Below, one piece after another: positions 26,720 to 54,527 of a stretch of DNA of 64,000 nucleotides. The DNA comes from an uncultured Erysipelotrichaceae bacterium (GTDB taxonomy: Bacteria > Bacillota_I > Bacilli_A > RFN20 > CAG-826): NCBI GenBank assembly GCA_902787955.1, contig CADAIJ010000003.1, positions 13,907-77,906 on the forward strand, written 5' to 3'. A program made the position numbers and the translations under genes. Numbering within the stretch: position 1 is the first letter of the stretch; every line of letters begins with the position of its first letter. Under the pieces are notes generated by a model. The model was not told the origin of the DNA. It was given only the letters and a program-made list of their open reading frames with translations, and made no database searches.

Positions 26720-26720
26720 T

Positions 26721-27539
26721 TTATTTTTCTTCGATAACTCCAGGCATCATTTTTAAATTCCAGAGTTTAGCTAAACCAATAATAACTTCATCCGGAATCT
26801 CATTAACAACATGGCCTAAAGTTAACATATAAATCTGAGCGGTCTTCTCGACGGTTTCGATTAAACCAAAAGCTTCATCAATATCATTTCCGGCGCCATA
26901 GATACCATGATTAGTCCAAGAAACAATTCGATGTTCTTTCATTTTATTAGCAGTGGCTTCACCAATTTCAGTTGTGCCACAAATCATACATGGTAAAACA
27001 CCAATTCCTTCTGGGAAAACAACAACTGCTTCGGTATTTGATTTCCATAGTTTTCTTGTAAAGACTACTTCATCAGTTGGTAAGCAAGCCCCCATACAAA
27101 TTGTATAGGTTGGGTGAGTGTGCATTATTACTCTATTATTTGGATTAACTTTTAATCGAGTAGCGTGGCTCATTAAGTGGGCTGGAAATTCGCTTGTGAA
27201 CTTGCCTCCACTTCGATAGCCCCATAACAAGTGGGCTATTTTGCCATTATTATCAATTTTTACTAACCCTAAATTCTCTTCTGGATCTTTAATTATATTT
27301 TTAAAATATTTACCAGTTCCTGTGACTAAAAAATATTTATTTCTAGTGATTTCATCCGCTTTAAAACCAAGTGGAATATCTCTTATAAATTCATCTTTTG
27401 GGAAATATTCTTTTACATACATTTCGTCGATAAGATATGAAATGTTACCGCCATTTCTTTCATCCCAACCTTGATGATACATATTGTTAGTAATTTCACT
27501 AACTTCTTTAACAAATTTTGATTCTAAAAAGTTTTTCAT
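26721..27539 (-). CDS. rhaD: Rhamnulose-1-phosphate aldolase (class II aldolase/adducin family).
   Basis: 272 aa with the Zn-binding His cluster MHTHPTYT. Adjacent to rhaB. Confidence 0.8.
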   Translation of the reverse strand: MKNFLESKFVKEVSEITNNMYHQGWDERNGGNISYLIDEMYVKEYFPKDEFIRDIPLGFKADEITRNKYFLVTGTGKYFKNIIKDPEENLGLVKIDNNGKIAHLLWGYRSGGKFTSEFPAHLMSHATRLKVNPNNRVIMHTHPTYTICMGACLPTDEVVFTRKLWKSNTEAVVVFPEGIGVLPCMICGTTEIGEATANKMKEHRIVSWTNHGIYGAGNDIDEAFGLIETVEKTAQIYMLTLGHVVNEIPDEVIIGLAKLWNLKMMPGVIEEK

Positions 27540-27541
27540 TT

Positions 27542-28189
27542 TTATTCACCTACTATTTTTAATAAATCTGATAAGACTTCTAACTTATATTTAACTTGCT
27601 TATGGGCGCACGCATCTCCGATTGCCACTGGAACAAATCCACCCACAACCGCCGCGTCAATACCAGCAAAAGCATCTTCAACAACGATACAATCTTTTGG
27701 TTCTAATCCAATTCTTTTTGCGGCAATTAAAAATACTTCTGGATCTGGTTTACTTTTCTTAATATCTGTACCATCCGCTATCGCATCAAAGGCATTAATT
27801 AAACCAACTCGAGATAAAATTAATTTGGTATTTTTACTTGATGATCCAATCGCGATTTTTAGGCCTTTATTTTTAAGTTCGTCTAATGTATCTCTTACAT
27901 CAACACTTACAAAATCAGGAGTTAAACCATTAAGTAGTTCGCGATAGGTGTTATTTTTTTCTTCAGCAAAAGCAAGTTTCTCTTCTTCGCTAAAATGATA
28001 TCCTTCTAAAATAATCTCTAAAGAAGCCATTCTACTAACCCCTCTTAAGCGATTATTCTTTTCTCGGTTAAAAGGAATATTTAATCGATTAGCTAACTTT
28101 TTCCAAGCTTTATAATGAAAGTCATCTGTTGATAAAATGACACCATCTAAATCAAATATTACACCCTTAATCATTTTTATTATCTCCAA
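27542..28189 (-). CDS. HAD-superfamily hydrolase, beta-phosphoglucomutase-like subfamily.
   Basis: The VIFDLDGVIL motif I and a C-terminal VEDAFAGIDAA. Confidence 0.7.
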   Translation of the reverse strand: MEIIKMIKGVIFDLDGVILSTDDFHYKAWKKLANRLNIPFNREKNNRLRGVSRMASLEIILEGYHFSEEEKLAFAEEKNNTYRELLNGLTPDFVSVDVRDTLDELKNKGLKIAIGSSSKNTKLILSRVGLINAFDAIADGTDIKKSKPDPEVFLIAAKRIGLEPKDCIVVEDAFAGIDAAVVGGFVPVAIGDACAHKQVKYKLEVLSDLLKIVGE

Positions 28190-29624
28190 TAAAATATTTT
28201 CTTAATAAATATGAAGGAGTACAGCTCCAAGCGTGGCAATAGCTTAAAACGGCTTTACCTCCATATGGACTTTCATCTTTATTATTTGGATTAAATAATT
28301 CGTAGAAAGTGTCTGCCCCATCATTAGCCATCGCGCCCCAATATTCATCCATAGTTGAGCGAGCTTCTTCTTTTAAACCGCATTTAATTAAAGCTTCAAT
28401 GTAATAGTGATACATATATGGAGTCACTATTTCTTCAAAAGATAATGATTTTAAATTATGAATAATTTGTTGATTTTTCTCCAAAGAGAAATCATTACCT
28501 AAAATCATCCAAACATTACTCGCTAAAGAGATTTGTCTATCTTTTCCACTAACATATACGCCAAGTTTTTCATCAAAGAAATGTTTAGATGCTTCTAATT
28601 TCTTTTTATAGTCGTCAATTAATAATTTGGTGTCTTTATTAGTAGCTTTATATAGTTCAATTAAATCTTTTAAAGCCACTAAATAAACGCCTTGCGCGCC
28701 ACACTGTTTATTTAATCTTAAGTTCCAATCTAAAAAGCACCATCCTAAAACGCTACTATCATTAACTATGTCATCAGTAAAATTGTTTTGAGCAAGTTCA
28801 ATTTGTTTAGTGGCAATTGGTAATAAATCAATCACAGTTTTTAAATCGTTCGTGTGCTTAAAATAATCATTAAGCGTGGAGATATAAAGCAAGGAATAAT
28901 CAAACATAAAGGTATCATCACCAGTAACCTTTGGACTAGTGAAAACACATGCTGGTACTCTTCCATCTTTATCCGTTACTCCTGCAAATAAATAAAGACA
29001 CCTTTTGACTAGATCATAGTTTTTATAAGTGTAATAATTGGTTAAAGCTTGAAGTCTTAAGTCACCAAGCCATAAACGACGATCTCTTTTTGGTCCATCT
29101 TCAAATTCATACTGCATGCATTCATGAAGAGTTAATAAAGCTACTTTATCGATATTCTTTTCTAAAGAATTATTACCAACATAATTAACTCTAACATTAT
29201 TAGAAGAAAGAGCATCGATATGAGCGCCTTTTAAGATAACTCTATATTTATTTGAAGAGGCAACTAATTCAACTTTAACATAACGGAAAGCATATCTTCT
29301 TTTTAGTTTTAAGGTAGTTGGTAAGATATCTAAATGAATTAATTCTTCTTGAATCCAACTTTTTGAAATCCAACCATGATATTCTTCCGTCTTTTCATTA
29401 ATTTCATCTTTATGTTCACAAAATTTTATTCTTAATAAAATAGGGGCGTCTACTGGAGAGCCTTCAAAATCTAAATCAAGGGATAAGAAGCCAGTGTAAT
29501 GAGTAACAAAATCAATTACAAAAGCCTCACCTACTTTTAATTCACTTGAAAAATCTTTATTGATATAAGTATGAAATAATTCAGGTTTTAATTGCTTGGC
29601 AACATTTAGTAATCTTTTGTTCAT
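28167..29624 (-). CDS. Six-hairpin glycoside hydrolase, GH78 alpha-L-rhamnosidase-like catalytic domain only.
   Basis: 485 aa with no signal peptide. Has DRRLWLGD and C-terminal ...SYCHAWS... segments like the GH78 (alpha/alpha)6 domain. Confidence 0.5.
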   Translation of the reverse strand: MNKRLLNVAKQLKPELFHTYINKDFSSELKVGEAFVIDFVTHYTGFLSLDLDFEGSPVDAPILLRIKFCEHKDEINEKTEEYHGWISKSWIQEELIHLDILPTTLKLKRRYAFRYVKVELVASSNKYRVILKGAHIDALSSNNVRVNYVGNNSLEKNIDKVALLTLHECMQYEFEDGPKRDRRLWLGDLRLQALTNYYTYKNYDLVKRCLYLFAGVTDKDGRVPACVFTSPKVTGDDTFMFDYSLLYISTLNDYFKHTNDLKTVIDLLPIATKQIELAQNNFTDDIVNDSSVLGWCFLDWNLRLNKQCGAQGVYLVALKDLIELYKATNKDTKLLIDDYKKKLEASKHFFDEKLGVYVSGKDRQISLASNVWMILGNDFSLEKNQQIIHNLKSLSFEEIVTPYMYHYYIEALIKCGLKEEARSTMDEYWGAMANDGADTFYELFNPNNKDESPYGGKAVLSYCHAWSCTPSYLLRKYFIGDNKND

Positions 29625-31330
29625 TATATTCTAGTATCCCATTTGCCACAGAAAGCATCAACTGGGCTAACTCCTTTAAATTCAGAATCACCCATTAATT
29701 TCTCAATTAATTTATCGAGAATAATATCAGTACTTCCATAAGTATTAATATATGTCTTTACTCTTGGAACATCTAATAGATGGTATGGATTTTCTAAAGA
29801 AATGAAGATTGTTGGCACACTATTAATGTAGGTCGGAACGTTTGCTCCCATTGGTTGAGCCCATTCAATTCTCACTACTGTTTGGTTGCTCTTAGTGGCC
29901 ATATTTGCCGAATAAATAATTAAATCGTAATTATTCTTAACTTCTTCTGAAGAGGCCATCATTCCTTCAAAGCCTGGCTTAGGTACAAATTTAGTTACTT
30001 CAAAGCCTTTTTCTTTTAATTTATTCATGAAGTTGTTATTAGCACTCATATCAACGCTAAAACCCATTTGCCCTTCACCAGATTCAATCGCATAAAATAA
30101 CACTCTTTTATATTTATTTGGATTAATTGGTAAAACGTTTTGAATGTTTTTTACTAAAGTAATTGAATAATCTGCGACTTCATAAGCGAATTTTTTATTA
30201 TTCTTATTGCCCACTACTTTATTAATATTTTCTAAAGTAGGAATCATTCGATCTTTATGAAGTTTTAATGATGCTTTTAAGGCTAGGATTTTTCTAACTG
30301 CATCATTTAATCTTTCTTCGCTAATAATACCTTCTTCGTATCCTTTTCTCATAAATGAAAAGTCTTCTTCAAGGTTTTTAGTGAATAAAAACATATCGCA
30401 TCCAGCGGCAATAGTTAATGGAACTAGTTTTCTTCTCTCCATAGCGATATTTAATCCCGCCATAGTCGTGGAATCTGTTATTACTAAGCCATTAAAGCCT
30501 AGTTTTTCTTTTAATAAACCAGTAACAATCTCTTTCGAAATGGTTGCAGGTAAAATATCTTCATCTTTCAAAGAAGGAGTGAGCAATTTGCTATAAGAAG
30601 GAAGCATAATGTGTCCCACCATAATGGTTTTAACACCTGCTTCAATGCAGCTTTTATATATTTCCCCATAACTATTATCCCATTCTTCTATTGTTAAAGA
30701 ATTGATTGAAGTTACTAGATGTTGATCTCTTTCATCCACTCCATCACCTGGGAAATGTTTAGCACAACCTGCTAATCCATATTTTTGTAATGAATTAATA
30801 TAATTAACGCCGCACTTTTTGACCATGTTTTTGTTAGAGCCAAAAGTTCTAGTGTTAGTAATTGGATTTCTGAAATTTAAATCAATATCAACAATTGGGG
30901 CAAAAGACCAGTTAACCCCACAAGAACTGCCTTCTTTTCCACAAATATCACCTAAAATAGAAGCATATTTAGAGTCATTAGTAGCGGCAATTGCTAATTC
31001 TGCTCCTAATTTGGTTCCGCTAGTGGAAACGCCGTTTCCTCCCGCTTCTAAGTTTGCTGAAATAAGCATTGGAATCTTAGAGTTATTTTGTAAATAGCTA
31101 ACTGTTTTAACAATTTCTTCATTATTCATGACGCGGCACATAATGCCACCAATTTTTAGAACGTTAGCTAAATAACTTAGATATTGTTCATCGCTTGAAT
31201 AAGCAATTAAACAAAATAGTTGTCCTATTTTTTCTTCGAGAGATAAATTAGATAGAGTATTTTCAACCCAATCAATATCTTCGTCATTTAGATAAAATGG
31301 TTTACTCTTGAGGTTTGTCATTAGTTTCAC
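29624..31330 (-). CDS. Glycoside hydrolase family 3 protein (beta-glucosidase/beta-hexosaminidase-like).
   Basis: The GH3 N-terminal domain motif KHFPGDG and an upstream catalytic region. 568 aa. Confidence 0.75.
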   Translation of the reverse strand: MKLMTNLKSKPFYLNDEDIDWVENTLSNLSLEEKIGQLFCLIAYSSDEQYLSYLANVLKIGGIMCRVMNNEEIVKTVSYLQNNSKIPMLISANLEAGGNGVSTSGTKLGAELAIAATNDSKYASILGDICGKEGSSCGVNWSFAPIVDIDLNFRNPITNTRTFGSNKNMVKKCGVNYINSLQKYGLAGCAKHFPGDGVDERDQHLVTSINSLTIEEWDNSYGEIYKSCIEAGVKTIMVGHIMLPSYSKLLTPSLKDEDILPATISKEIVTGLLKEKLGFNGLVITDSTTMAGLNIAMERRKLVPLTIAAGCDMFLFTKNLEEDFSFMRKGYEEGIISEERLNDAVRKILALKASLKLHKDRMIPTLENINKVVGNKNNKKFAYEVADYSITLVKNIQNVLPINPNKYKRVLFYAIESGEGQMGFSVDMSANNNFMNKLKEKGFEVTKFVPKPGFEGMMASSEEVKNNYDLIIYSANMATKSNQTVVRIEWAQPMGANVPTYINSVPTIFISLENPYHLLDVPRVKTYINTYGSTDIILDKLIEKLMGDSEFKGVSPVDAFCGKWDTRI

Positions 31331-32390
31331 CTCTATTTTTCTTTTCTTTATATTGCTTTATTATTTTTTTAATAAGGGTTCCGTTAGCTAAATCTTTACA
31401 GGTTTGTTCGTTATTTAAAAAGATTAAGAATCCCACTAATAAGACTGCAGTGACGATCGATTGAATACTCGCGGTAATTGTTTTCGTGTTAAATAAGGCG
31501 AACATAGAGCTTAATAAACTGATACAGATTGAGGCAATTAAATAGCCAATCTTGTCATTTGTGTATTTACCAATATATCCCCCAATAAACATTGGTAAAA
31601 AGGCGATGAACATAATTCCAATTGAACCAAAGTTTAATACAGAAGTAGCAATTTGGTTACCTGGGAGAACTTGTAAGAAACCAACTGTTCCCATTAACGC
31701 ACCACAGATTGTATAGCATATAATCGCGTTTGGAACTTCTTTAATCCCTGTATTAACAGCGATATTTTGTCCTGCTCTTAAAGCTTTGTAGTTAAAACCA
31801 AACTTAGAACGATCAAATACTAAATAAATAACACCTAAGGCTAAAACGATAATAATAAGATGAATCCACCAACTCTCTCTAAAGAAAATCATCGAGGCAT
31901 TGGATGTTTCAGTGGTAATGTATCTACCGCCACTAATCATATAAATAATGCCTTCAAATATTAAAGTGACACCTAAAGAAGTGATAATTGGAGGGAGTTT
32001 TAAAGCAACGTATAAAGCTCCTGATAAAGCACCTAAGACTGCTCCAACAATAATAGAAATTAAAAGCATTACTGGAGCACTTGCTCCACTTCCAGCTAAC
32101 ATTGCGTAAGTAATTTTAGCAGCAATAACGGAGGATAAAGTTGATAATGATCCAATCGAAAAGTCGAATCTTCCACTACTTAGGTTAATTGATAAAGCAA
32201 TTGTGGTAAGAAGGACAACCGCGGTATATCTAGTAAAGCCATAGAAAGAAACATCCGTAGTTAAAATCATTTGTCCGCTTGATAAACAGACAATTAAAAT
32301 AGCCATAATAACGAGAACAGGGATTGTAAAAATACCAAACGCTTTTTTACGAATGTCTTTAGCTTTTGATTGTTTATTAATTGCTTCCAT
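31302..32390 (-). CDS. ABC transporter permease (BMP/CUT2-type inner-membrane component).
   Basis: 362 aa, polytopic, with typical branched-chain/sugar ABC permease topology. It belongs to a 4-gene transporter cluster. Confidence 0.7.
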   Translation of the reverse strand: MEAINKQSKAKDIRKKAFGIFTIPVLVIMAILIVCLSSGQMILTTDVSFYGFTRYTAVVLLTTIALSINLSSGRFDFSIGSLSTLSSVIAAKITYAMLAGSGASAPVMLLISIIVGAVLGALSGALYVALKLPPIITSLGVTLIFEGIIYMISGGRYITTETSNASMIFFRESWWIHLIIIVLALGVIYLVFDRSKFGFNYKALRAGQNIAVNTGIKEVPNAIICYTICGALMGTVGFLQVLPGNQIATSVLNFGSIGIMFIAFLPMFIGGYIGKYTNDKIGYLIASICISLLSSMFALFNTKTITASIQSIVTAVLLVGFLIFLNNEQTCKDLANGTLIKKIIKQYKEKKNRGETNDKPQE

Positions 32391-32469
32391 AAATTACCTC
32401 CGCAATGTTAACTAAGTGCTTGCTATGCAGGAATTAACCCGCATAGCAAGACACGCTTTTATAATTTGA

Positions 32470-33639
32470 TTATTGTGGTGTTCTATCTAATTCAACAGCA
32501 GCTTTGAAGCTATCATATGATGCACCGATAAGTGTATCTAAAACTGTCTTATTGAAAATAGGATTAGTAACTGAATCTGCTGATTGGAATTTTTCGAATT
32601 CAGCAGAGCTCTTGGCTGTCCAATAACCTTGGCTAAGAGAGAAGGCATCGCCATTTGCAAGTCTAATGGCCTTACCATCGATAGCAGATTTAATAGCAGC
32701 AAAGATTGGCCCTAATGAAGAAGAATATTTACCAGCTAAGTATTTTAATGAACCGGTTTTCATGTGGGCTCCGTTAGCGGTTGTAAATGAATCGATATCA
32801 GAATATTCAAGGTTTGCTTTATCTAACATATCAGCAAAGAAAGTTGTGGTCATACCAACTGATAAGAATGCGTCTGGATTACCAGCAATAATTTCACCGA
32901 CTCTACCAAAGATTGCACCTTCACCATCAAAACCACTGCAATAATCAATTGTGACATCACCAGCGATATTTGAAGCGTCGAATTGAGCGCCATCACCAAA
33001 GACAGTGTAAACGATATTTTGACCGCTTTGTCCTTTGTAAGTATCACCTAAACCAGTTAATAAACCAGCCATACGGTATAAGTGCATTGGGTTTGGAATA
33101 AACGCACCATAAACGCCAACTTTAGAAACTTTTTTGGTTTCTTTATAATATTGACCCATTGCTAAGCCAGTATTATATTCGGTAACCATATCTGGGCCAA
33201 TTTGACCAACAAAGTATTCGAGATTCTTGCTAGCGTTATAGTCTTCATCACTCATCATTCCACTACCAATTGCAAAGTAAACTTTGTTTGTATTGCATAA
33301 TTGAGCAAGATCGCCACGGTTCTTATCAGCCATATCGATAATTGCTTTGCAGTTTTGACCAATAAATGTTTCTGCTTGAGCTCTTGCTTGTTCAGCAGAA
33401 TCGAGTTGTGGAGAATAAACAAATTCGTAGTTGTATTCTTTAGCAACATATTGTTGTAAATAGTTTTTGAAGCCGATTGCTTCATCACCACTTGCATCTG
33501 CAACTAAAACACCAACTTTGACAGTGCTATTACCACCGCCACAAGCAACAAGAGCCATACTTGCTCCGGCCAACGCGATAGCAGTGACCCCTTTAATAAA
33601 TTTTGAAATTGCCATAATTTCACTTTTTTGCATATACAT
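32470..33639 (-). CDS. BMP-family (basic membrane protein / PnrA-like) substrate-binding lipoprotein.
   Basis: Signal peptide with the lipobox LVACGGG. The periplasmic-binding fold sequence lies between the two permease genes. Confidence 0.7.
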   Translation of the reverse strand: MYMQKSEIMAISKFIKGVTAIALAGASMALVACGGGNSTVKVGVLVADASGDEAIGFKNYLQQYVAKEYNYEFVYSPQLDSAEQARAQAETFIGQNCKAIIDMADKNRGDLAQLCNTNKVYFAIGSGMMSDEDYNASKNLEYFVGQIGPDMVTEYNTGLAMGQYYKETKKVSKVGVYGAFIPNPMHLYRMAGLLTGLGDTYKGQSGQNIVYTVFGDGAQFDASNIAGDVTIDYCSGFDGEGAIFGRVGEIIAGNPDAFLSVGMTTTFFADMLDKANLEYSDIDSFTTANGAHMKTGSLKYLAGKYSSSLGPIFAAIKSAIDGKAIRLANGDAFSLSQGYWTAKSSAEFEKFQSADSVTNPIFNKTVLDTLIGASYDSFKAAVELDRTPQ

Positions 33640-33726
33640 ATTGTACTTATGCTATGCGTTACCTTTCATAAGATTAGAGTTGCTAGTACAAAGCAACGTT
33701 TATTTGTCCACCGAAGTGGTTAAAAC

Positions 33727-34755
33727 CTATCTTGGCAAGTTTTTAGAACGGTAATTGATACTTGCTACAAAGACGATAGCAAGGAAGAAAACACCGCTGA
33801 TAACTTGCACTAAACCATCTCTTGCTCCTTCCATTGATTGGAAAAGAATAAAGAGAATATTGGTCATGATGTTGTATGAAAATCCACCGATAAGAGCGGA
33901 ATATATCCTACTTCGAGCACCACCATTAATTGGCATGCCACCAAAGACAATAGCGATAAATACCGACATACCAATGCTACTAGCAGTTGTGGTTGATACT
34001 GTATGAGCGTAAACAACAGTCATTGAGCTTCCTAAACCAACTCCTAAACCTGCTAAAGCAAAAGCGATAATACCGAATAAAGAAATGGAAATACCGGTTA
34101 ACTTAGCGCATTTTTCATTGCCACCAAGGAACTTTTGTTTTCTACCAACTTTTGTAAAGTTAAATATAAAGACCATTGCTAAGATAAAGATGCCAAGCAA
34201 GATGATTTTAAATATAGGAGTGTCTAATGGTGCTAATTTATCCACGAGTTCAGAAGGTAAATTAATGCTATAAGAAGTTCCACTTGCACTGCCTTGAGAT
34301 TGAATTAAGAATGTGGCTAAAGCTGTTAAAACAGAAAGCATTGCAATTGTGGTAACAAACATCGGGAGATGAAATACACTAGCAATTAAAGCGTTTAATA
34401 ATGAACAACCAACCGCAACGAGGATACAGATGATAAATAATAGAGCGATACTACCTGTAGCTTTATAAACTAAAGTACCAATAACTGCAGAGAATAATGC
34501 ATTAGCGCCTAAAGATATATCAAACTGGCCAAGAGTGAATATGAATATAGCGCCAGTTGCTACTAAAACAAGAATCAAAGATTGATTTAATAAAGATCTT
34601 AAATTCATCATGATGTTATAGTCGTTAACATTTAAAATGATGATATAAAAGACGAAAAGTAAAATAAGCGCTAATAAAGGAAGCAAAGTAATGACTAACT
34701 TTTTAGCTTTATATTTATCAAATTTTGGTTTTTTATTTTCCATAACTTGTTCCAT
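33727..34755 (-). CDS. ABC transporter permease (second membrane component).
   Basis: 342 aa, polytopic, adjacent to the ATPase gene. Confidence 0.7.
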   Translation of the reverse strand: MEQVMENKKPKFDKYKAKKLVITLLPLLALILLFVFYIIILNVNDYNIMMNLRSLLNQSLILVLVATGAIFIFTLGQFDISLGANALFSAVIGTLVYKATGSIALLFIICILVAVGCSLLNALIASVFHLPMFVTTIAMLSVLTALATFLIQSQGSASGTSYSINLPSELVDKLAPLDTPIFKIILLGIFILAMVFIFNFTKVGRKQKFLGGNEKCAKLTGISISLFGIIAFALAGLGVGLGSSMTVVYAHTVSTTTASSIGMSVFIAIVFGGMPINGGARSRIYSALIGGFSYNIMTNILFILFQSMEGARDGLVQVISGVFFLAIVFVASINYRSKNLPR

Positions 34756-34766
34756 AAAAACACTCC

Positions 34767-36314
34767 TTAGATCATATAACCGATGATTTCGGCATCGCTT
34801 AAATCTTTACTTCTTAAGAATTCTTTATTAATTTTTCCATCTTTCATAATGATCAAACGATCACTCATGCCCATTAATTCCGGTAATTCTTCGGAAATGA
34901 TAATAATGGTCTTCCCTTCTTTTTTAAGACGATAAAGTAGTTGGTACATAGCTTGTTTAACACCGATATCAACACCACGTGTTGGGCAGTCTAAAACTAA
35001 GATTTCACTACCGCAGCCAATCCATTTACCAAAAACTACTTTTTGTTTATTACCACCTGATAGGGTTTGTACTACTTGAGAACTATCAGAACATTTAATT
35101 AATAAGGAGTCGATTTGTTTTTTAACATATTCATTTTCTTTAGAATAGAGAACTAAGAAATTCCCGATAGAGAAAATATCTAAACCAGCGATTGCGATAT
35201 TATCTTTAACGGATGCTGATAAAACTAATGACTCATTATCTCTATCTTTTGAGACATAGCCAATTTTCTTTTTAGTAGCGAAGATTTCGTTTTTAATCTT
35301 TTCGCCATTAACTAAAGCTTCTCCATCATCGAGTTTAACCGCGCCAAATAATGCTTTTCCTAAGGTGTGCATTCCGCAATGAGATAAACCACCAATACCG
35401 AGGATTTCTCCTTCATGAGCTTCTAAATTAATGCCATACATATGACCTTTTACAGTCGCATTTTTTAATTCAATTGTGACTTTTTCACCATGAGTTGGAT
35501 CATAATCACTACGATAATAATCACCTTCTAATTCACGGCCAATCATACTTAATCTAATTTGATCAGGATCGAATTCTTCTTTTTTGAATGTGCGGATGAT
35601 GTTGCCATCTCTTAAAACCGTTAAGGTATCGCAAACTTCCATAATCTCATCTAAATCATGAGAAATGAAAATAACTGCTCTATTTTCTTCTCTATAACGT
35701 TTAACTACTTTATAAAGAATTTCTCTTCCTTTTTGTGATAAGGCGGTTGTTGTTTCGTCAACGATTAAAATTTCAGGTTCTTTCATGATGACTTTAGCAA
35801 TTTCGACTAGTTTACGAGATTGGAAATCTAAAGCACCCATAATCATGGAACTATCAATATTATCAATTCCAATATTTCTTAATACTTCGTTTGCGCGTGC
35901 ATGCAGTTCTTTTTTATTAATAAAGCCATATTTACTAAATTGATTTAAATTACCTAAGAAAATGTTTTCAGCGACAGAAATACCTGCAATTGTTCCACTT
36001 TCTTGAACAATCATGCCGATTCCTTTATCTAAGGCATCGATCATACTTTTAGGAGCCCAGTTTTCACCTAAATATTTCATTTCACCGCTATCGGCTTTTT
36101 GCATTCCAGCAGCGATAGAGGAGATTGTTGATTTGCCAGAACCATTCTCGCCAATTAGACCTAAAACATCTCCACGATAGAGTTTTAAATCAACATTATT
36201 TAAAGCAGTAACAGGACCAAAAGTTTTAGTCATATTGGTGATTTCCAAAATCAAATCACCTTTATTTCGAGTAATGGAATTTGGCATTTTTAAACGCTCC
36301 TTTTGTATCGACAA
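34767..36314 (-). CDS. ABC transporter ATP-binding protein with two fused ATPase domains.
   Basis: The first domain has Walker A GENGSGKST, the signature LSGGNKQK-type motif and Walker B. The second domain is degenerate, as in CUT2/BMP-type importers. Confidence 0.85.
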   Translation of the reverse strand: MSIQKERLKMPNSITRNKGDLILEITNMTKTFGPVTALNNVDLKLYRGDVLGLIGENGSGKSTISSIAAGMQKADSGEMKYLGENWAPKSMIDALDKGIGMIVQESGTIAGISVAENIFLGNLNQFSKYGFINKKELHARANEVLRNIGIDNIDSSMIMGALDFQSRKLVEIAKVIMKEPEILIVDETTTALSQKGREILYKVVKRYREENRAVIFISHDLDEIMEVCDTLTVLRDGNIIRTFKKEEFDPDQIRLSMIGRELEGDYYRSDYDPTHGEKVTIELKNATVKGHMYGINLEAHEGEILGIGGLSHCGMHTLGKALFGAVKLDDGEALVNGEKIKNEIFATKKKIGYVSKDRDNESLVLSASVKDNIAIAGLDIFSIGNFLVLYSKENEYVKKQIDSLLIKCSDSSQVVQTLSGGNKQKVVFGKWIGCGSEILVLDCPTRGVDIGVKQAMYQLLYRLKKEGKTIIIISEELPELMGMSDRLIIMKDGKINKEFLRSKDLSDAEIIGYMI

Positions 36315-36514: not shown

Positions 36515-38995
36515 ATGGAAAATATTTACGAAATTATCCCCTTTAGTAATGAATTACCCACTGAGTTAAAGTGCCAATATATTGACAGTTATGTTAATAC
36601 TTTGTCCAAAGATACCACCATAATTTTTGTTTTGGATGGAGAAGCAAACATCATTTATGACGGTAATTCTTCGTTATTAAAACAAGATGATATTGTTCTA
36701 ATTAATAAAAATACTGTTTTTAATATTTCTTCAAACGGAGCTACCCTTTTAATCTTTGAATTCAATATAGATAACATATTAAAAACCAACGTTAAACGAA
36801 CATACTTTTTATGCAATTCTTCTTTAGATGAAGATAAAAGCAAATACCATCATTTGATTAGATTAATTGCGAGACTAATTAAAGATTATTCAGAACATCC
36901 ACAAAACATTTTTGCTCACCTTGCCGCGATATGTCAGATCTATGATGAATTATGTCTTAATTTCCTTTCCGATAATAATAGCATTAATAATACCCATAAG
37001 TATCAAGATAGGGTGCAACAAATCACCCATTATATTGATGAGCACTTTGAAGAAAATATAGCATTGTCCACTTTATCTAATGCAATTGGTTTATCCACTC
37101 CTTATTTATCTAGTTTCTTTGATAAATATATCGGGATGAATTTCCATCAATATTACACCGAATATCGCTTAAGCAAGGCCATTGATGAACTAATATTTAC
37201 TGATAAAACTATTGAGGATATTTCGTACTCATGTGGATTTAATGATGTTCGCTCCTTTGTTTATTCTTTTAAAAAGAAATATAAGATTTTACCTAGCATT
37301 TATCGTAAACAAAATAGAGTTATTCCGATTGATAAAAAATCATTATCTTATGATATTGAAAGAAAACACAATAAATACGAAAACAATTTAAGTACAATCG
37401 CTAAATATTTAGATGTGAAATATGAACGCTCCGATACATTAAAAGATGAATATTTAAAAGAAATAAAAATAGATGATATTGATGTAACTTCTCCAAAAGC
37501 TCAATTAAAGCACAATTTTAAAGTTTTCACTTCTGTTTCTCGCGCTAAAGAATTGCTATACGCTGATGTTCAAGAAATGTTAAAAGAACTTCAGAAAAAA
37601 GTCGGATTTAAGTACATTAAATTCCACGGCATTTTATCAGATGATATGCTCGTTTATAAAGAAGATGAATATGGTAATCCTACTTATAGTTTTGTTTTTA
37701 TAGATAAAGCATTAGATTTTATTTTGTCAATTGGTTTAAAGCCACTTATTGAATTTACGTTCATGCCAAAAGATTTAACTAATGCAAATGCACATAGTGT
37801 TTTTGCGTCTAAATTTTATATTGGTGAACCAAAAGATTACGATAAATGGGCTGATTTAATTAAAAATCTCATGTTACACCTTATCGATAGATATGGAATT
37901 AGAGAAGTGAGAAGTTGGCTTTATTGCGCTTGGAATGAACCTGACACCACCACATCATTATTTGGCTTTAAAAATGATAATGATTATTACAAACTATATA
38001 AAATTACATATGAGATAGTGAAGGGTTTTTCCTCACAGTGTCAATTCGGTTCTCCTTCCATTATTTTTTCTTACAAAGTTTATCAAGATTGGATTAAGAA
38101 ATTTATCGAATATTGTAATAACAATAACTGTAGACCTGATTTCATTAATATCCATTACTACGATAATGATTTTACTTTCGATAATATTTCATCTCATTCA
38201 CCAGCGAATCCATCTCACGGCCGTTTAAATATGGATTCTGAATCATTCAATAAGGCTATTGTGGATATTAAAAAATATATGAATGATTTAGAAGTCGGAG
38301 AATTACCAATTTATCTAACTGAATGGAATTTAACTGTTTCACACCGCAACTTATTAAACGATACAGTTTTTAAATCATGTTATTTAGCCAAGAACTTATT
38401 AGAAAACTATGATGAATTAGATAGTTTTGGTTATTGGGTTTTAACTGATTTAATTGAAGAAACTCAACCATCAATGTCTGAATTCCATGGAGGTTTAGGT
38501 TTATATACGTATCACCAAATCAAGAAACCGCACTTCTACATTTTTGAGTTTTTAAATACTCTTGGTAATTCTTTTATTGATAAAGGACCAGGTTATTTTG
38601 TTGCGAAAAAGCATGGTTGTATTCAAATAATTCTTTATAATTACGAGCATTTTAATCATTTATTTGCCTCAGGTGAAACATATGATATGACATATTTAAA
38701 TAGATACACCCCATTTTCTAATTTAGGAAAAATGAAAGTATCGTTAGACTTAAAAGGTTTTACCGCTAAAAAATGTCATATTGTTGAAAAAATAGTAAAC
38801 CAAAAACATGGATCCGCTTTTGATGAATGGGTTTCGATGTCCGCTCCTAAAATTGATGAACAAATCATCGATTATTTAAAGAGTATTTGTATTCCTAAAA
38901 TGAATACTAAAGATGAAGAAATAATAAATGGAAAAATAAGTATTTCAGCAACACTTTCACCATTAGAAGTACGTTTAATTGAAATCCACTATTAG
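36515..38995 (+). CDS. AraC-family transcriptional regulator fused to a C-terminal clan GH-A (GH39-like) glycoside-hydrolase domain.
   Basis: An N-terminal cupin-like region precedes the AraC HTH (IALSTLSNAIGLSTPYLSSFFDKYIGMNFHQYY...VRSFVYSFKKKY). The C-terminal ~500 aa carry the acid/base motif CAWNEPD and the nucleophile motif LTEWN, which are the spaced catalytic signatures of GH39/GH-A. Confidence 0.65.
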   Translation: MENIYEIIPFSNELPTELKCQYIDSYVNTLSKDTTIIFVLDGEANIIYDGNSSLLKQDDIVLINKNTVFNISSNGATLLIFEFNIDNILKTNVKRTYFLCNSSLDEDKSKYHHLIRLIARLIKDYSEHPQNIFAHLAAICQIYDELCLNFLSDNNSINNTHKYQDRVQQITHYIDEHFEENIALSTLSNAIGLSTPYLSSFFDKYIGMNFHQYYTEYRLSKAIDELIFTDKTIEDISYSCGFNDVRSFVYSFKKKYKILPSIYRKQNRVIPIDKKSLSYDIERKHNKYENNLSTIAKYLDVKYERSDTLKDEYLKEIKIDDIDVTSPKAQLKHNFKVFTSVSRAKELLYADVQEMLKELQKKVGFKYIKFHGILSDDMLVYKEDEYGNPTYSFVFIDKALDFILSIGLKPLIEFTFMPKDLTNANAHSVFASKFYIGEPKDYDKWADLIKNLMLHLIDRYGIREVRSWLYCAWNEPDTTTSLFGFKNDNDYYKLYKITYEIVKGFSSQCQFGSPSIIFSYKVYQDWIKKFIEYCNNNNCRPDFINIHYYDNDFTFDNISSHSPANPSHGRLNMDSESFNKAIVDIKKYMNDLEVGELPIYLTEWNLTVSHRNLLNDTVFKSCYLAKNLLENYDELDSFGYWVLTDLIEETQPSMSEFHGGLGLYTYHQIKKPHFYIFEFLNTLGNSFIDKGPGYFVAKKHGCIQIILYNYEHFNHLFASGETYDMTYLNRYTPFSNLGKMKVSLDLKGFTAKKCHIVEKIVNQKHGSAFDEWVSMSAPKIDEQIIDYLKSICIPKMNTKDEEIINGKISISATLSPLEVRLIEIHY

Positions 38996-39138: not shown

Positions 39139-41304
39139 TTATTTGAAAATTAAAGATATAACACTCTTTTTATTTTTATATTCGTAACTATAGCTCTTGG
39201 ATAAAGTCTTAACTAATGTGACTCCAAAGCCTCCAGGAGTGGTGTCATCATCATCTTTAGAAAGATGTTTATGAACATGTTTAACAAATGGGTTATAGTC
39301 TGCACCATTTGAAGTAATAACAACTTTAAGATCATCCTTTTCAAATGAGAAATCAATATCAATAACTAAATCTTCTCGTTTTTCATAAGAAATTTGGTTA
39401 TTAAGTAATTCATCTAAAGCAATTCCAACGTGGGCTTTAACTTCTTCATCTACTGAACCATAAACCTTATAAAATTCTTCCATTGTTTCATCAATAATGG
39501 AGTAGTCTTTCTTCTCAAAATGAAGTGATAATGAATTGTCTTTTCTTTCTAAAACAACCATGGTGATATCATCAAATTGTTCTTCTTCTTTAACGAAATC
39601 TTTTAATTTATTGTTAAAGTAGGTTATTTTTTCGTTTAAAGATGAATCTTTACATTCTTTTAATGTTTCAACGATACGATCATAACCAAATTCTTCATTA
39701 TCTTTGTTTATTGATTCATTTAAGCCATCCGTAAAGGTAAATAAGGTATCGCCTTGAACAAATGGAGATTTCTCTTCGATAAAGGTTAAATCTTCTTCTC
39801 CACCTAAGACAAAGTTAGATGTTCCATCAAGCTTAATAATCTCATTTTGATGGATTATATATGGTTTTTCATGGCCAGCGTTAACAAATCTTATCTCATT
39901 ATTCTTTGAATCGATAATCGCGACAAAAGCAGTAACGAATAAGGAAGAATCATTATTAATTGTTAATTCATTATTAACAGTTGCAATGGAGTCCACTAAA
40001 GAAAGACCGCTTAAAATCTTTGCTTTAAGCAAGGTCTTAGCTTTCATCATAAACATCGCTGCAGGTACGCCTTTGCCACTAACATCAGCAATTAATAAAA
40101 CTAAATTATCACCAAAATAGAAATAATCATAGAAGTCTCCACCAACAACTTTAGCAGGCTTAATATAAGCACTAAGTTTAACGTTATTATCCATGAAATT
40201 TCTACTAGGAAGTGCGCTCAATTGAATATCTGAAGCAATTGAAAGTTCAGCTTCTCTTCTCTCATTTTCTTTAGCTTCTTGTTTAATGATATTAACGTAA
40301 TTAACAATTTCTTGTTCCATGATTTCAAATGATGATGCTAAAGAGGCAATCTCATCACGGCTCTTAATATTTAATGGAACAGGAGTAATACCTTTATGTT
40401 CTTTTAAATCAGAAGAAATATTATCAGTTTGAGTAGTTAATTTATTTAAATTACGTGTAATTGTGAAATGGGATAAAAGCATATAAAGGACGATGGACGC
40501 CACCATAACAGAAGAAATAATAATAATTTCATTGCCTAAAATTTCACGGTCTTTTTTTGTCACTTCGTTTAAATCGTATTCAATAAAGAAGTCGGCAACT
40601 TCAACTTGATTGCCTTCGCCATCAGTTTGATAAATAGGGACAAAACGAGTTAAATATCCAGCAAGTTCAAATCCATAATAGTTTTCATCAACGACATCGA
40701 TAACTTTATCAAACTCCTTAATGGAATAATGGCTACCTGGAAGATGATAGAATTTATCATTCTCATTTGGATTTGTTATTCGAGAATCCGCGACGAAAAC
40801 AAGTCTAGTTTCGTTTTCAAGTTCATCTTTAAAACAAACATAGGCTGCACGACCACCACTAGAAAGAAATGCTTCAGTAATAATATGGGTTAGCTCGCGA
40901 TATTTACGTGCAAAATCAAAATAGGCTTGACTACCAATCATTGAATTTGGATCCGGAAAGATCCATGGTGCTCTTTTTTGAAAGTATTGTTCATACTCGT
41001 CAAAATTGTTATTGAAATCACCATCAAGAGTTTTGTCGTGAATGTCTTCGCGATTATAAACATCGTTTCTAACGTAACTAATAACATCTGCTAATTCTTC
41101 AGTAGAAGTAGCTCCGGTAAGTTCTTTTGTGTAATTAAATTCAACACTATATAAAGATTGATCAATATTTGTAATTAAAGTTTCCTTACTTCTATTTTGT
41201 TGGTTGATTGAAGAGATAGTTAAAGCTACTCCTGAACCAATCCCAGAAGCTAAAATGCCTAAAATTGCAATTTTTAAAATAATAGGAAACTTAACTTTTT
41301 TCAT
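39139..41304 (-). CDS. Membrane sensor fused to a PP2C-type (SpoIIE/RsbU-like) phosphatase and a C-terminal RsbW-like GHKL kinase domain.
   Basis: Two TM helices flank an extracytoplasmic domain of about 230 aa. The PPM motif is LIADVSGKGVPAAMFM. The C-terminal N-box ALDELLNN and G-box GGFGVTL are present. Confidence 0.65.
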   Translation of the reverse strand: MKKVKFPIILKIAILGILASGIGSGVALTISSINQQNRSKETLITNIDQSLYSVEFNYTKELTGATSTEELADVISYVRNDVYNREDIHDKTLDGDFNNNFDEYEQYFQKRAPWIFPDPNSMIGSQAYFDFARKYRELTHIITEAFLSSGGRAAYVCFKDELENETRLVFVADSRITNPNENDKFYHLPGSHYSIKEFDKVIDVVDENYYGFELAGYLTRFVPIYQTDGEGNQVEVADFFIEYDLNEVTKKDREILGNEIIIISSVMVASIVLYMLLSHFTITRNLNKLTTQTDNISSDLKEHKGITPVPLNIKSRDEIASLASSFEIMEQEIVNYVNIIKQEAKENERREAELSIASDIQLSALPSRNFMDNNVKLSAYIKPAKVVGGDFYDYFYFGDNLVLLIADVSGKGVPAAMFMMKAKTLLKAKILSGLSLVDSIATVNNELTINNDSSLFVTAFVAIIDSKNNEIRFVNAGHEKPYIIHQNEIIKLDGTSNFVLGGEEDLTFIEEKSPFVQGDTLFTFTDGLNESINKDNEEFGYDRIVETLKECKDSSLNEKITYFNNKLKDFVKEEEQFDDITMVVLERKDNSLSLHFEKKDYSIIDETMEEFYKVYGSVDEEVKAHVGIALDELLNNQISYEKREDLVIDIDFSFEKDDLKVVITSNGADYNPFVKHVHKHLSKDDDDTTPGGFGVTLVKTLSKSYSYEYKNKKSVISLIFK

Positions 41305-41307
41305 AAA

Positions 41308-41604
41308 TTATTTAACAGTTAAGATGTTAGCGAATCCAGTAACCTTAAAAACTTCTCTACAAACATTATTAAGGTTATGAATTTCTAATTTCTTATCTTC
41401 TTTTGCAAGGCTTTTCTTTAAAGCGAGAAGTAAACGAAGGCCTGCTGAAGAGATATATTCAGTTTCTTTCATATCGAAAATAACTAATTCTTCCTTAATA
41501 TCTTCTTCTTCAATTCTTTTATTTAATTCAAGGGATGAAACGGTATCAAGGCGACCATTAAATTCAATAATCATTTCGTTTCCATGTTTGATTCTAATTT
41601 CCAT
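41308..41604 (-). CDS. STAS-domain anti-sigma-factor antagonist (SpoIIAA/RsbV-like).
   Basis: 98 aa with the conserved phosphorylatable Ser context DMKETEYISSAGLRLLL. It lies 4 nt upstream of the phosphatase/kinase gene. Confidence 0.7.
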   Translation of the reverse strand: MEIRIKHGNEMIIEFNGRLDTVSSLELNKRIEEEDIKEELVIFDMKETEYISSAGLRLLLALKKSLAKEDKKLEIHNLNNVCREVFKVTGFANILTVK

Positions 41605-41739
41605 AGCAACCTCCAGTAATAATTATTAATGAAATTCTATACGATTAATCAACCACTTTGAATATGTATATGTTCAAAATTTCATTAATAGAATAAGACA
41701 AATAGAGAAAAACTGTTACTTTTTTATAAATTTATTCGA

Positions 41740-41766
41740 AATAAAAAGTCCCAAAAACAGGACTTC
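41740..41766 (-). terminator. Intrinsic terminator downstream of the channel gene.
   Basis: On the minus strand AAGTCCTGTTTTTGGGACTT is followed by TTTATTT. Confidence 0.5.
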
Positions 41767-41792
41767 CTATATGAAATTTGGATAAAAATGCA

Positions 41793-42731
41793 CTATTTAT
41801 TATCAGAATCTTGATTATCTTTAGAATCAGGTTGTTCTTCAACTTTAGGTTTTTCTAATTTTCCATCTTCGTTCTTGGTTTCGTTATAGTAGTTAACAAT
41901 AACACTGGTAATAGACGCGACAACGATGATTCCATAAATTCCTAATATAACAGAAAGTATTCTACTAATCGGATCAGTTACGGTAATATCGCCTAAACCA
42001 ATAGTAGTAACAATCGCAAATGAATACCATAGGCCATCGCTGATTGTTTTAACACTCTCTTCAGTAATCATGAAGAAGAATGAGAAAGAAACTATTAATA
42101 AAAATAAGCCATAAATAATTTCAAAGACATAAGTCTTTCTAATTATTCTAAGTAATCCACGTAATTGAATTTTAGAAAAAGCAAGACTTAAAACATCGGC
42201 AAAAGACACTAATAAAATTATTAATACTAAAAGAGTTAAAAAGGCGTAATTTGCTTCAGTTGGTACTGTAAGAATAATAGTAATCGCAAGAAATGAGGCT
42301 AGACCGGCAAGTAGCACATTATAAACAATTCTAAATGCGCCTTTTCTTTCGAGAATCAAACAAACACGATTAGCAACAATTGTTGCAAAATATAATACAG
42401 CGGCAATTGAATAAAAGACATAGTCGGTTTGATATATAGTCAAAACTAAGATGGCAATTGCTAAATAAACAACTGCAAAAGAAATGTTCTTAATCGTAGC
42501 AATCTTATTTTTATTATCTACGAAATATGCTTTTAAAGCTAAAAGGCCTTTCGAAATTAATAAAAATACAAAGACGAGAAATAAATAAATCTTAGAGGTA
42601 AGAGGCGAAGTTGAAATAATAGCCTCATGCATTGATAATAACGAAAAGATTACAACACCTAAAATCGATAAACCATAAACGATATAATAGATGGTATCTG
42701 AATTCTCTTTAGTAATTTTAAACTTTGCCAT
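41793..42731 (-). CDS. Ion-channel family protein with a K+-channel-like pore loop.
   Basis: Polytopic membrane protein. The pore-loop-like TTIGLGDI resembles the TxGYGD selectivity filter. Acidic C-terminal tail. Confidence 0.55.
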   Translation of the reverse strand: MAKFKITKENSDTIYYIVYGLSILGVVIFSLLSMHEAIISTSPLTSKIYLFLVFVFLLISKGLLALKAYFVDNKNKIATIKNISFAVVYLAIAILVLTIYQTDYVFYSIAAVLYFATIVANRVCLILERKGAFRIVYNVLLAGLASFLAITIILTVPTEANYAFLTLLVLIILLVSFADVLSLAFSKIQLRGLLRIIRKTYVFEIIYGLFLLIVSFSFFFMITEESVKTISDGLWYSFAIVTTIGLGDITVTDPISRILSVILGIYGIIVVASITSVIVNYYNETKNEDGKLEKPKVEEQPDSKDNQDSDNK

Positions 42732-54510: not shown

Positions 54511-54527
54511 TTCTCTAGGGTCCAAGT

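Follow-up and report, generated by a model that had tools for sequence, protein, structure and literature searches.

A STAS protein and a membrane-bound PP2C/RsbW-like fusion protein as a putative partner-switching module with extracellular input and no sigma factor gene nearby

In a 64-kb window, by which we mean the whole stretch of DNA that was analysed, the gene of a 98-aa STAS protein and the gene of a 721-aa protein combining a membrane sensor, a PP2C/SpoIIE phosphatase and an RsbW-like GHKL domain form a two-gene operon. We interpret this pair as a phospho-switch of the partner-switching type that takes an extracellular input and probably acts on something other than a sigma factor; to this explanation as a whole we assign a probability of about 55%. 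Partner switching is best known for the control of sigma factors. The pair belongs to a large family in gut-associated Bacilli/Erysipelotrichaceae-like genomes that has a Cache-HAMP input, the domains of both opposing enzymes in one protein and no sigma factor nearby; among the matches listed, the closest named relatives are MAGs designated 'Bacilli bacterium', 'Erysipelotrichaceae bacterium' and 'Acholeplasmatales bacterium'. The positions of all features are collected in Table 1.

Table 1. Features of the STAS/sensor fusion operon and its upstream region (positions in the window; res, residues of the encoded protein)
Feature	Position	Strand	Basis
STAS single-domain protein, anti-sigma-antagonist type, 98 aa	41308..41604	(-)	ORF, Pfam/NCBIfam
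721-aa sensor/PP2C/RsbW-like fusion gene	39139..41304	(-)	ORF, Pfam, model
TM1, res ~6-32, N-terminus inside (MKKVK, +3)	41209..41289	(-)	hydropathy; helix 8-59 in model
Extracytoplasmic Cache/PDC-like sensor, res 33-250	40555..41208	(-)	Cache/PDC fold; no Pfam match
TM2, res ~256-282	40459..40539	(-)	hydropathy
HAMP-like helix-connector-helix and coiled-coil linker, res 283-365	40210..40458	(-)	Pfam HAMP; model helices 245-301, 318-364
PP2C/SpoIIE phosphatase, res 366-588, metal-binding Asp390, Asp407, Asp526, Asp578/579	39541..40209	(-)	Pfam, Foldseek
RsbW-like GHKL domain, res 590-721	39142..39537	(-)	Pfam HATPase_c_2, RsbW profile match
Ser53 codon, predicted phospho-acceptor within Y-I-S-S-A-G-L-R	41446..41448	(-)	conservation
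GGAGG ribosome-binding site, 5 nt 5' of STAS ATG	41610..41614	(-)	sequence
Promoter-like TTCAAA-17-TAGAAT, ~30 nt 5' of STAS start codon	41634..41662	(-)	consensus scan
Hairpin AAGTCC/GGACTT then TTTATTT, 3' of upstream K+ channel gene; likely terminator	41738..41767	(-)	direct reading; terminator scan did not list it

Both reading frames agree with a preliminary description of this DNA, which placed the larger protein 4 nt behind the STAS protein: 3 nt lie between the STAS stop codon (TAA) and the ATG of the fusion gene, which starts 4 nt past the last stop base. The small protein scores 51 bits against Pfam STAS (cut-off 22.6) and 52.6 bits against NCBIfam ant_ant_sig, and the Pfam domain E-values of both ORFs are well outside the range of chance. 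The adjacency of the two genes holds in all close orthologues: a STAS gene of ~98 codons ends 2–15 nt upstream of the fusion gene in L002–L007, L043 and L045 and is called immediately upstream of it in L082–L090. In the phospho-Ser context pointed out by the preliminary description, the predicted acceptor is Ser53, which we take to be the counterpart of RsbV Ser56 and SpoIIAA Ser58; it is not replaced in any of the 26 STAS proteins adjoining PP2C genes in Bacilli, Clostridia and Proteobacteria. Promoter-like sites are no commoner here than in shuffled sequence, so that the one ahead of the STAS gene is a plausible promoter only. The neighbouring gene upstream, on the same strand and at a distance of 188 nt, encodes a K+ channel (Ion_trans_2), and the hairpin in the interval is likely a terminator that parts it from the operon.

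The 721-aa protein is built, from its N- to its C-terminus, of TM1, a Cache/PDC-like sensor, TM2, a HAMP segment, the PP2C domain and the RsbW-like GHKL domain. An AlphaFold2 model gives the same domain order with a pLDDT of 84.6, but its pTM is only 0.47, so that the folds of the domains can be trusted and their relative placement cannot. Two transmembrane helices around an extracytoplasmic sensor had already been proposed; hydropathy agrees, and the Cache-type fold and the HAMP segment are to be added to that picture, the latter with a marginal Pfam score (25.9 bits over residues 281–329, cut-off 25). According to Pfam, a Response_reg (REC) domain is absent from the fusion, the N-terminal 365 residues being TM-Cache-TM-HAMP. 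The sensor domain is less conserved than the cytoplasmic domains, with a major-residue frequency of 0.39 versus 0.67 for PP2C and 0.60 for GHKL; the GHKL domain is thus nearly as constrained as the phosphatase.

Profile and structure searches uphold the earlier assignment of the cytoplasmic half to a PPM/SpoIIE phosphatase and a GHKL domain, and all the motifs quoted for the two proteins were found, namely ISSAGLRLL (residues 51–59) in the STAS protein and DVSGKGVPAA (407–416), ELLNN (632–636) and GGFGVTL (691–697) in the fusion. The phosphatase matches Pfam SpoIIE with 140 bits (E 1.2e-40), its Foldseek matches are the PP2C domains of SiaA, RssB and SpoIIE, and Asp390, Asp407, Asp526, Asp578 and Asp579 are invariant in 87 of 87 clade sequences. 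The GHKL domain passes the Pfam cut-off for HATPase_c_2 (39.8 versus 27.4 bits, E 5.3e-10). As a single-sequence query against the PDB this domain gave matches at chance level only; a 28-sequence profile of it reaches Bacillus subtilis RsbW (6M36, E 7.7e-5), the anti-sigma-B kinase being its closest solved relative by profile. When the PP2C and GHKL part of the model was compared with the crystal structure of the RsbU and RsbW domains of Rv1364c (3KE6), Foldseek returned an E-value of 4.7e-19 over 363 columns.

Within the GHKL domain the N-box (D631-E632...N636) and the G2 box (G691-G692-x-G694) are intact, and Glu632, Asn636 and glycines 691, 692 and 694 are invariant in all 87 clade members. 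In GHKL ATPases the Asp of the G1 box contacts adenine N6 and is normally essential. Here this canonical Asp is replaced by Ser665, followed by Asn666, which is fixed in 86/87. The position holds Ser in 58 clade members, Cys in 11, Asn in six, Ala in four, Thr in two and His in one; Asp is present in only five and hence absent from 82/87. With Ser665 in place of the G1 Asp, it is not certain that the domain binds ATP and acts as a kinase, and its kinase competence is one that we infer. The protein could instead pair a phosphatase with a pseudokinase: the GHKL domain would not bind ATP and would be a mere docking or receptor site for the STAS protein, while another kinase acts on STAS or the phospho-cycle is vestigial. 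In favour of this, few clade members keep the Asp, whereas distant PP2C-linked kinases retain F-x-D-x-G at the G1 box, and the variety of substitutes suggests a position free of constraint. However, the invariant N-box and G2 box together with the fixed Asn666 are what one would expect if the nucleotide site still worked but contacted adenine differently, the conservation of the domain almost equals that of PP2C, and the invariant catalytic residues of PP2C as well as Ser53 of STAS imply an active phospho-cycle. Furthermore, no other RsbW-like kinase is present in the annotated locus of the window, L082, L089, L083, L085 or L088. We regard a pseudokinase as unlikely.

The preliminary description had noted that no sigma factor gene lies nearby, and this is borne out. 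A Sigma70 domain was not found by Pfam in the scanned ORFs of at least 70 aa of the window; the scan covered these ORFs apart from one of 930 aa at 15599-18391 and one of 515 aa at 34767-36314, the latter being ABC_tran in the identical locus L001. Neither is a Sigma70-family gene present in the ten Pfam-annotated orthologous loci (L001, L082–L090), and no rpoS-like gene was seen. The ~2.5–3 kb past each window end contain nothing relevant.

The neighbourhoods of relatives suggest a different candidate partner. An NRPS gene encoding ~2,400 aa adjoins the STAS-sensor pair in 10 of 15 informative relatives; NRPS genes and/or genes that join a MatE transporter to a HATPase_c_2 domain are present in L002, L005, L007, L083–L088 and L090. 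In four loci (L086, L087, L090 and L002) the MatE+HATPase_c_2 gene lies between NRPS and STAS and adjoins the latter, while L005 carries a C-terminal MatE-HATPase_c_2 fragment upstream of the NRPS and L083, L085 and L088 are NRPS-linked without the MatE fusion. MatE+HATPase_c_2 genes are also found directly upstream of PP2C genes in ~14 Clostridia loci. The transporter-borne HATPase_c_2 domains carry degenerate catalytic motifs, as would be expected of a receptor that only binds. Which residue the sensor fusion has at the G1 position was not correlated with whether a MatE fusion is present. A literature search yielded nothing relevant on a MATE/RsbW or NRPS/STAS link, although its coverage is incomplete and this is no proof of novelty.

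The window itself contains no MatE-HATPase_c_2 gene, no NRPS gene and no other HATPase_c_2 protein, as judged by Pfam and by phmmer with NRPS and MatE queries. Nevertheless, its fusion and STAS proteins are orthologous to the cluster-borne copies, with full-length alignment, the same architecture and 38–46% identity, and a rough NJ tree places the window clade amid members linked to an NRPS. The lineage of the window appears to have lost the linkage to NRPS and MATE, and the proposed receptor of STAS is not encoded within the 64 kb. The term 'stand-alone', used for the module in the preliminary description, applies to the window's lineage alone: in most relatives the pair is part of an NRPS/MATE-exporter cluster.

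These neighbourhoods also bear on the possibility that the fusion is an anti-sigma factor resembling CrsR and HsbR, whose GHKL domain would sequester a sigma factor encoded elsewhere until dephosphorylated STAS displaces it, with a transcriptional output. The nearest solved profile relative of the domain is RsbW, the survey for Sigma70 was confined to 64 kb of the genome, and CrsR and HsbR, which have the same PP2C-kinase order, bind an RpoS that is encoded elsewhere (PMC6482189). However, a Sigma70-family gene is found in neither the window nor the ten annotated orthologous loci, and what is conserved next to the pair is an NRPS and a MATE transporter bearing the same kind of domain, which makes a transcriptional output of this type improbable. 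Far less probable still is an action of STAS on the product of a neighbouring gene, either the same-strand K+ channel or a GGDEF cyclase as in HsbA-HsbD: a GGDEF gene does occupy the upstream position in the syntenic orthologue L089 and HsbA~P binds the cyclase HsbD (PMC6482189), but that position varies between a K+ channel (window), a divergent GGDEF gene (L089) and an unrelated 143-aa ORF (L082), and between the channel gene and the operon there is a hairpin with a T-run. With its position not conserved in these two syntenic orthologues, the K+ channel was rejected as STAS target.

We return to the partner-switching module with a non-sigma output as our preferred reading. The Cache/PDC-like extracytoplasmic domain would sense a ligand or condition, and the signal would travel via TM2 and the HAMP-like linker and shift the balance of two predicted cytoplasmic activities: the RsbW-like domain would phosphorylate Ser53 of STAS and the PP2C domain would take the phosphate off. 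The phosphorylation state of STAS would then be a readout of the external signal, and the dephosphorylated form would bind a receptor domain of the RsbW-like kind. The strongest candidate for it in sister lineages is the degenerate C-terminal HATPase_c_2 domain of the MATE exporter, in which case the NRPS product would be exported under the control of the switch; judged by gene adjacency and motif degeneracy, the transporter is a plausible non-sigma receptor of STAS. In the window's lineage the pair would have parted from the cluster, with the receptor gene outside the 64 kb; as the window lacks any such gene, the receptor of its copy is extrapolated from relatives at 34–46% identity.

A further-reaching version of this model is tentative, and we consider it possible but doubtful. 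The operon would belong to a new class of partner switch, in which a Cache-sensed cue sets the phosphorylation of STAS and the dephosphorylated protein docks on the pseudokinase tail of a MATE exporter, gating the export of a gut-bacterial NRPS product. The window copy would act in trans on such a transporter elsewhere or, once the cluster was lost, might have acquired a new receptor, and an altered mode of nucleotide binding might explain why the G1 Asp is lost across the clade while Asn666 is fixed. If STAS does dock on the transporter, a partner switch would gate the export of secondary metabolites post-translationally, and this would offer a way to test how small NRPS products are regulated in gut bacteria. 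Taken by itself, the window yields a signalling module of two genes whose annotation is sound.

A single protein holding kinase and phosphatase for one STAS substrate, as emphasised in the preliminary description, is confirmed at the level of its domains, yet it is less unusual than implied and lacks the G1 Asp. That the PP2C and kinase domains of one protein act on a neighbouring STAS is well established, with HsbR/HsbA, CrsR/CrsA, SypE/SypA and Rv1364c as examples. With partner switching of the RsbU/RsbV/RsbW type in general, the module shares a STAS protein with conserved Ser and a PP2C with intact aspartates, but not a sigma factor in the operon. The Bacillus systems RsbU-RsbV-RsbW-SigB and SpoIIE-SpoIIAA-SpoIIAB-SigF draw on the same three families of proteins and follow the same logic of a phosphorylated serine; they differ in that kinase and phosphatase have genes of their own, the operon includes the sigma factor and the G1 box of the kinase is canonical. 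Among PDB entries, Rv1364c of Mycobacterium tuberculosis (3KE6) matches the PP2C and RsbW-like unit best in both structure and sequence, with an identity of only 18%. In Rv1364c, PAS and STAS domains are also fused into the same chain. Rv1364c is cytoplasmic, whereas the protein studied here has a membrane sensor as input and its STAS is a separate ORF of 98 aa.

In HsbR/HsbA of Pseudomonas aeruginosa and CrsR/CrsA of Shewanella oneidensis a protein with PP2C and kinase domains acts on the adjacent STAS protein (PMC6482189). Here, too, PP2C is followed by a GHKL kinase/anti-sigma domain in one chain and a single-domain STAS gene adjoins. However, HsbR and CrsR are proteobacterial, take their input from a phosphorelay through a receiver domain at the N-terminus and bind RpoS with their kinase domain, whereas the present protein from Bacilli has TM-Cache-TM-HAMP as input, no linked sigma factor and no G1 Asp. 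SypE of Vibrio fischeri is a dual Ser kinase/phosphatase of the STAS protein SypA, whose downstream target is no known sigma factor (PMC8256260). Both SypE and, by prediction, the fusion unite Ser kinase and phosphatase domains for STAS in one protein, but SypE is a soluble response regulator, while the fusion has no receiver domain and a different domain order. The order in SypE is kinase-REC-PP2C. Compared with Chlamydia trachomatis RsbU (CT588), where RsbW is a separate protein, the RsbW-like domain is here fused to the phosphatase. The PP2C/kinase/STAS module HenR/Alr3423/All4160 of Anabaena regulates an enzyme and not a sigma factor (bioRxiv 10.64898/2026.04.08.717354); there the glycosyltransferase under control carries the STAS domain in its own chain, and one protein serves as kinase and another as phosphatase. 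Against this background three features are new: a membrane Cache-HAMP input module for a PP2C and kinase protein of this kind, the absence of the G1 Asp in most of the clade while N-box and G2 box are invariant, and the adjacency to an NRPS in the majority of informative relatives together with a MATE transporter that carries a degenerate RsbW-like domain of its own.

The STAS gene and the sensor-fusion gene were called at exactly the positions and sizes given for them in the preliminary description, and all motifs cited there were found in the two ORFs. The arrangement looks like a two-gene operon: a GGAGG ribosome-binding site lies 5 nt 5' of the STAS ATG, the junction between the genes reads TAA-ttt-ATG, a promoter-like TTCAAA-17-TAGAAT of a kind at least as frequent in shuffled sequence is located ~30 nt upstream of the STAS gene, the K+ channel gene is followed by a short hairpin and TTTATTT (read by eye; the terminator scan did not flag the hairpin) and the gene downstream of the sensor fusion is convergent. 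Convergent to the sensor gene, a single 826-aa ORF joins an AraC-type regulator, recognised by HTH_18 and a weak cupin match, to a complete GH39 domain (265 bits). This unusual regulator-enzyme fusion is kept in L001, a locus identical to the window. Elsewhere in the window, a 198-aa protein has its XRE-type HTH at the N-terminus, ahead of a receiver domain, which reverses the usual order, and its gene shares one base with the beginning of a LytS-like His_kinase/HATPase_c sensor gene. The ABC sugar transporter of the rhamnose block comprises two permeases, a likely lipoprotein and an ATPase; no Pfam match was obtained for the 673-aa predicted surface or membrane protein.

Features of the window and of related loci (L-numbers)
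Feature	Position	Strand	Remarks
STAS gene, 98 aa	41308-41604	minus	ORF call
Sensor-fusion gene, 721 aa	39139-41304	minus	ORF call
K+ channel gene (Ion_trans_2)	41793-42731		precedes STAS gene
AraC-type/GH39 ORF	36515-38995	plus	
XRE-HTH/receiver and LytS-like genes	20561-22431	plus	
HARE-HTH gene	63052-63462	minus	
Three paralogous AAA_14 + DUF4143 ATPase genes	9455-10705, 12023-13387, 22477-23730	minus	within 15 kb
Rhamnose/glycoside utilisation block	24183-36314	minus	RhaA, FGGY kinase, class II aldolase, HAD, GH78 rhamnosidase, GH3, ABC sugar transporter
Two large predicted surface or membrane proteins	15599-20461	minus	930 and 673 aa
Six tRNA genes	54435-55101	plus	Val, Tyr, Gln, Lys, Leu, Gln
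STAS-APH fusions	L069:11203-12381, L020:7710-8882, L004:14098-15252		also L016, L026, L042, L046, L052, L063, L065, L067, L079
STAS-HAD phosphatase fusion	L026:7931-9025		
Two adjacent modules with ABC exporter genes	L004:5977-15252		'Bacilli bacterium' MAG
Second stand-alone STAS gene, 101 aa	L082:15015-15320		
GGDEF gene	L089:8376-9479		
NRPS-linked cluster	L090:130-12154		

Pfam assigns the small protein to STAS (51 bits) and NCBIfam to the anti-sigma antagonists; for both proteins of the pair the two libraries agree at the superfamily level only. In the sensor fusion, Pfam identifies a SpoIIE/PP2C domain (residues 399-587, 140 bits, E 1.2e-40) and a marginal HAMP domain (residues 281-329, 25.9 bits against a cut-off of 25); the NCBIfam matches to SiaA, SpoIIE and RsbW are all sub-threshold. 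Hydropathy places TM segments at about 6-32 and 256-282, and with the positively charged N-terminus the ~220 residues between them are predicted to lie outside the cell. An AlphaFold2 model based on 87 homologues shows the same order of elements and has reliable individual domains (mean pLDDT 84.6), while its pTM of 0.47 makes the relative domain placement unreliable. The top Foldseek match of the model was 3KE6, a crystal structure of M. tuberculosis Rv1364c that comprises its fused RsbU and RsbW domains (E 4.7e-19, 363 columns), in accord with the sequence search, followed by the PP2C domains of SiaA, RssB and SpoIIE. The C-terminal HATPase_c_2 assignment, on which the preliminary description had staked its reading, is upheld by Pfam (residues 617-719, 39.8 bits; cut-off 27.4) and by a 28-sequence profile of the GHKL domain that matches B. 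subtilis RsbW (6M36, E 7.7e-5) with N-box and G2 box aligned.

Replacement of the STAS serine in orthologues, which would have told against the preliminary description, was not seen. Ser53, the second Ser of Y-I-S-S-A-G-L-R, is present in 26/26 STAS proteins encoded adjoining PP2C genes in the retrieved loci, including those from Clostridia, Magnetococcales, Aeromonadales and Binatia. In the 87-sequence full-length alignment the four PP2C metal-binding motifs, GGDF (D390), DVSGKG (D407), TDG (D526) and FDD (D578/579), are invariant, as are D631, E632, N636 and G691-G692-x-G694 of the GHKL domain. The G1 box of the window protein is T-S-N-G, compared with A-D-E-G in RsbW, S-D-Q-G in VicK and F-x-D-x-G-x-x-[YF]-[ND]-P in more distant PP2C-linked kinases. 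Across the clade the G1 Asp position is occupied by Ser (58), Cys (11), Asn (6), Asp (5), Ala (4), Thr (2) or His (1), and the following residue, Asn666, is fixed in 86/87 sequences and variable in the distant kinases. In GHKL ATPases the G1 Asp makes contact with the amino group of adenine and is as a rule indispensable, so kinase activity of this domain cannot be assumed, and the protein might be a phosphatase joined to a pseudokinase. We find this doubtful, since N-box and G2 are strictly conserved and the GHKL domain comes close to the PP2C core in constraint (mean major-residue frequency 0.60 and 0.67; sensor 0.39). The invariant PP2C residues and Ser53 would imply a live phospho-cycle, and with the GHKL conservation they make an active kinase whose adenine contact has changed appear more likely than a pseudokinase.

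In agreement with the preliminary description, no sigma factor gene was found in the window: neither Sigma70_r2/r4 nor another sigma domain was found by Pfam in its ORFs of at least 70 aa, all but those at 15599-18391 (930 aa) and 34767-36314 (515 aa; ABC_tran in L001) being scanned, and there was none among the Pfam-annotated neighbours in ten orthologous loci. The C-terminal domain, with its profile match to RsbW, might instead act as a CrsR-like anti-sigma factor toward a sigma factor encoded elsewhere, which we consider unlikely. The only RNA polymerase-related gene seen in the window encodes a HARE-HTH protein whose C-terminus is a long acidic tail and which resembles the Firmicutes RNA polymerase delta subunit.

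The full-length sensor-fusion architecture occurs in hundreds of metagenomic proteins (700-725 aa, 38-63% identity), the most informative name among them being 'SpoIIE family protein phosphatase [Bacilli bacterium]', and the PP2C and HATPase_c_2 core with other N-termini is widespread in Clostridia, Treponema, Synergistaceae and Proteobacteria. In L002-L007, L043 and L045 the fusion gene is preceded at 2-15 nt by the end of a ~98-aa STAS gene, and in all annotated orthologous loci such a gene was called directly upstream. Downstream of the orthologous pair in L082, at a distance of 5 kb, a second stand-alone STAS gene closes a uronate-catabolism operon.

In 10 of the 15 informative family loci (L002, L005, L007, L083-L088, L090) an NRPS gene adjoins the pair. 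The synthetases measure about 2,400-2,950 aa and consist of Condensation/AMP-binding/PP-binding modules and a terminal reductase-like domain; the order is described as C-A-T-C-A-T plus the reductase-like domain, at about 2,400 aa. They may resemble the small C-A-T-C-A-T-R synthetases of gut Firmicutes, which make dipeptide aldehydes and pyrazinones. Only 12-20 nt separate the NRPS end from the STAS gene in L083, L085 and L088, and in L086, L087, L090 and L002 a 580-590-aa gene with both MatE and HATPase_c_2 above cut-off is located between them; L005 has a C-terminal fragment of one upstream of its NRPS. L090 looks like a complete cluster, with the order PPTase, NRPS, MatE-HATPase_c_2, STAS, sensor fusion. 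The MatE-HATPase_c_2 family comprises hundreds of proteins that lack an informative name. Among the matches listed, 120/120 MatE-fusion proteins have both domains and are called just 'hypothetical' or 'ATP-binding protein', and at least 16 putatively share a contig with a listed sensor-fusion cluster, as judged by an equal length of the longest contig; in about 14 Clostridia loci such genes lie directly upstream of PP2C genes. Whereas PP2C-linked HATPase_c_2 domains retain their catalytic motifs, those of the transporters are degenerate (in the Bacilli clade G2 reads S-T-S-G; Clostridia show a degenerate G1 and frequent loss of the N-box Asn), as expected if the tail were a binding-only STAS receptor and the sensor the enzyme pair. 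The incomplete literature library searched yielded no paper in which RsbW-like domains or STAS proteins are tied to MATE transporters.

We favor, at a probability of roughly 55%, a partner switch in which the state of the Cache domain, relayed by HAMP, would shift the balance between C-terminal kinase and PP2C phosphatase. Phosphorylation of Ser53 would thus report an external signal, and dephospho-STAS would bind an RsbW-like receptor domain, in the relatives most plausibly the MATE exporter tail; for the window pair this receptor may be encoded elsewhere or have changed. This exporter-linked hypothesis is of more interest than the window pair itself.

Neither NRPS nor MatE genes were found near the pair in the window, L089 (63% orthologue) or L082 (59% orthologue). 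A rough neighbour-joining tree groups the three as a subclade within the NRPS-linked members, which suggests that standing alone is the derived state. L089 keeps MgtE, PTAC, TSCPD, metK, HPF, HAD and two unknown genes in synteny with the window. The gene directly upstream of the pair varies (K+ channel in the window, divergent GGDEF in L089, unknown 143-aa ORF in L082), which argues against a cis-encoded target and makes STAS action on a neighbouring gene's product very improbable. The GGDEF diguanylate cyclase gene of L089, in the place of the K+ channel, recalls HsbA-HsbD, but it is divergent and not conserved.

Other retrieved loci contain further STAS fusions. STAS joined to an APH-type (aminoglycoside-phosphotransferase-like) kinase, about 365-450 aa, adjoins PP2C(-HATPase_c_2) genes in Clostridia and Erysipelotrichaceae MAGs and is apparently another non-sigma output of partner-switch modules. 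In L026, a gene joining STAS to a Cof-type HAD phosphatase (Hydrolase_3, 183 bits) is immediately followed by a PP2C-HATPase_c_2 gene. In L004, genes for two ABC exporter half-transporters directly precede the STAS-sensor pair, and a convergent downstream module of PP2C-HATPase_c_2 (624 aa) and STAS-APH places two partner switches side by side.

Taken as a whole, the feature is real and its interpretation as a partner-switch module is supported. HsbR/HsbA and CrsR/CrsA share the PP2C-then-kinase order and the adjacent STAS protein, but have receiver-domain input and a captive RpoS (PMC6482189). SypE is a dual kinase/phosphatase whose partner SypA has a target that is not a known sigma factor (PMC8256260), and in Chlamydia the PP2C phosphatase RsbU bears a periplasmic sensor domain (PMC8256260; structure 6MAB). 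In Rv1364c a PP2C and an RsbW-like domain are likewise fused (3KE6), and a 2026 preprint describes a PP2C/kinase/STAS module that controls a glycosyltransferase (10.64898/2026.04.08.717354). The window system works like these modules and is a member of none: it has no receiver domain, fused STAS or linked sigma factor, and its G1 box is non-canonical.
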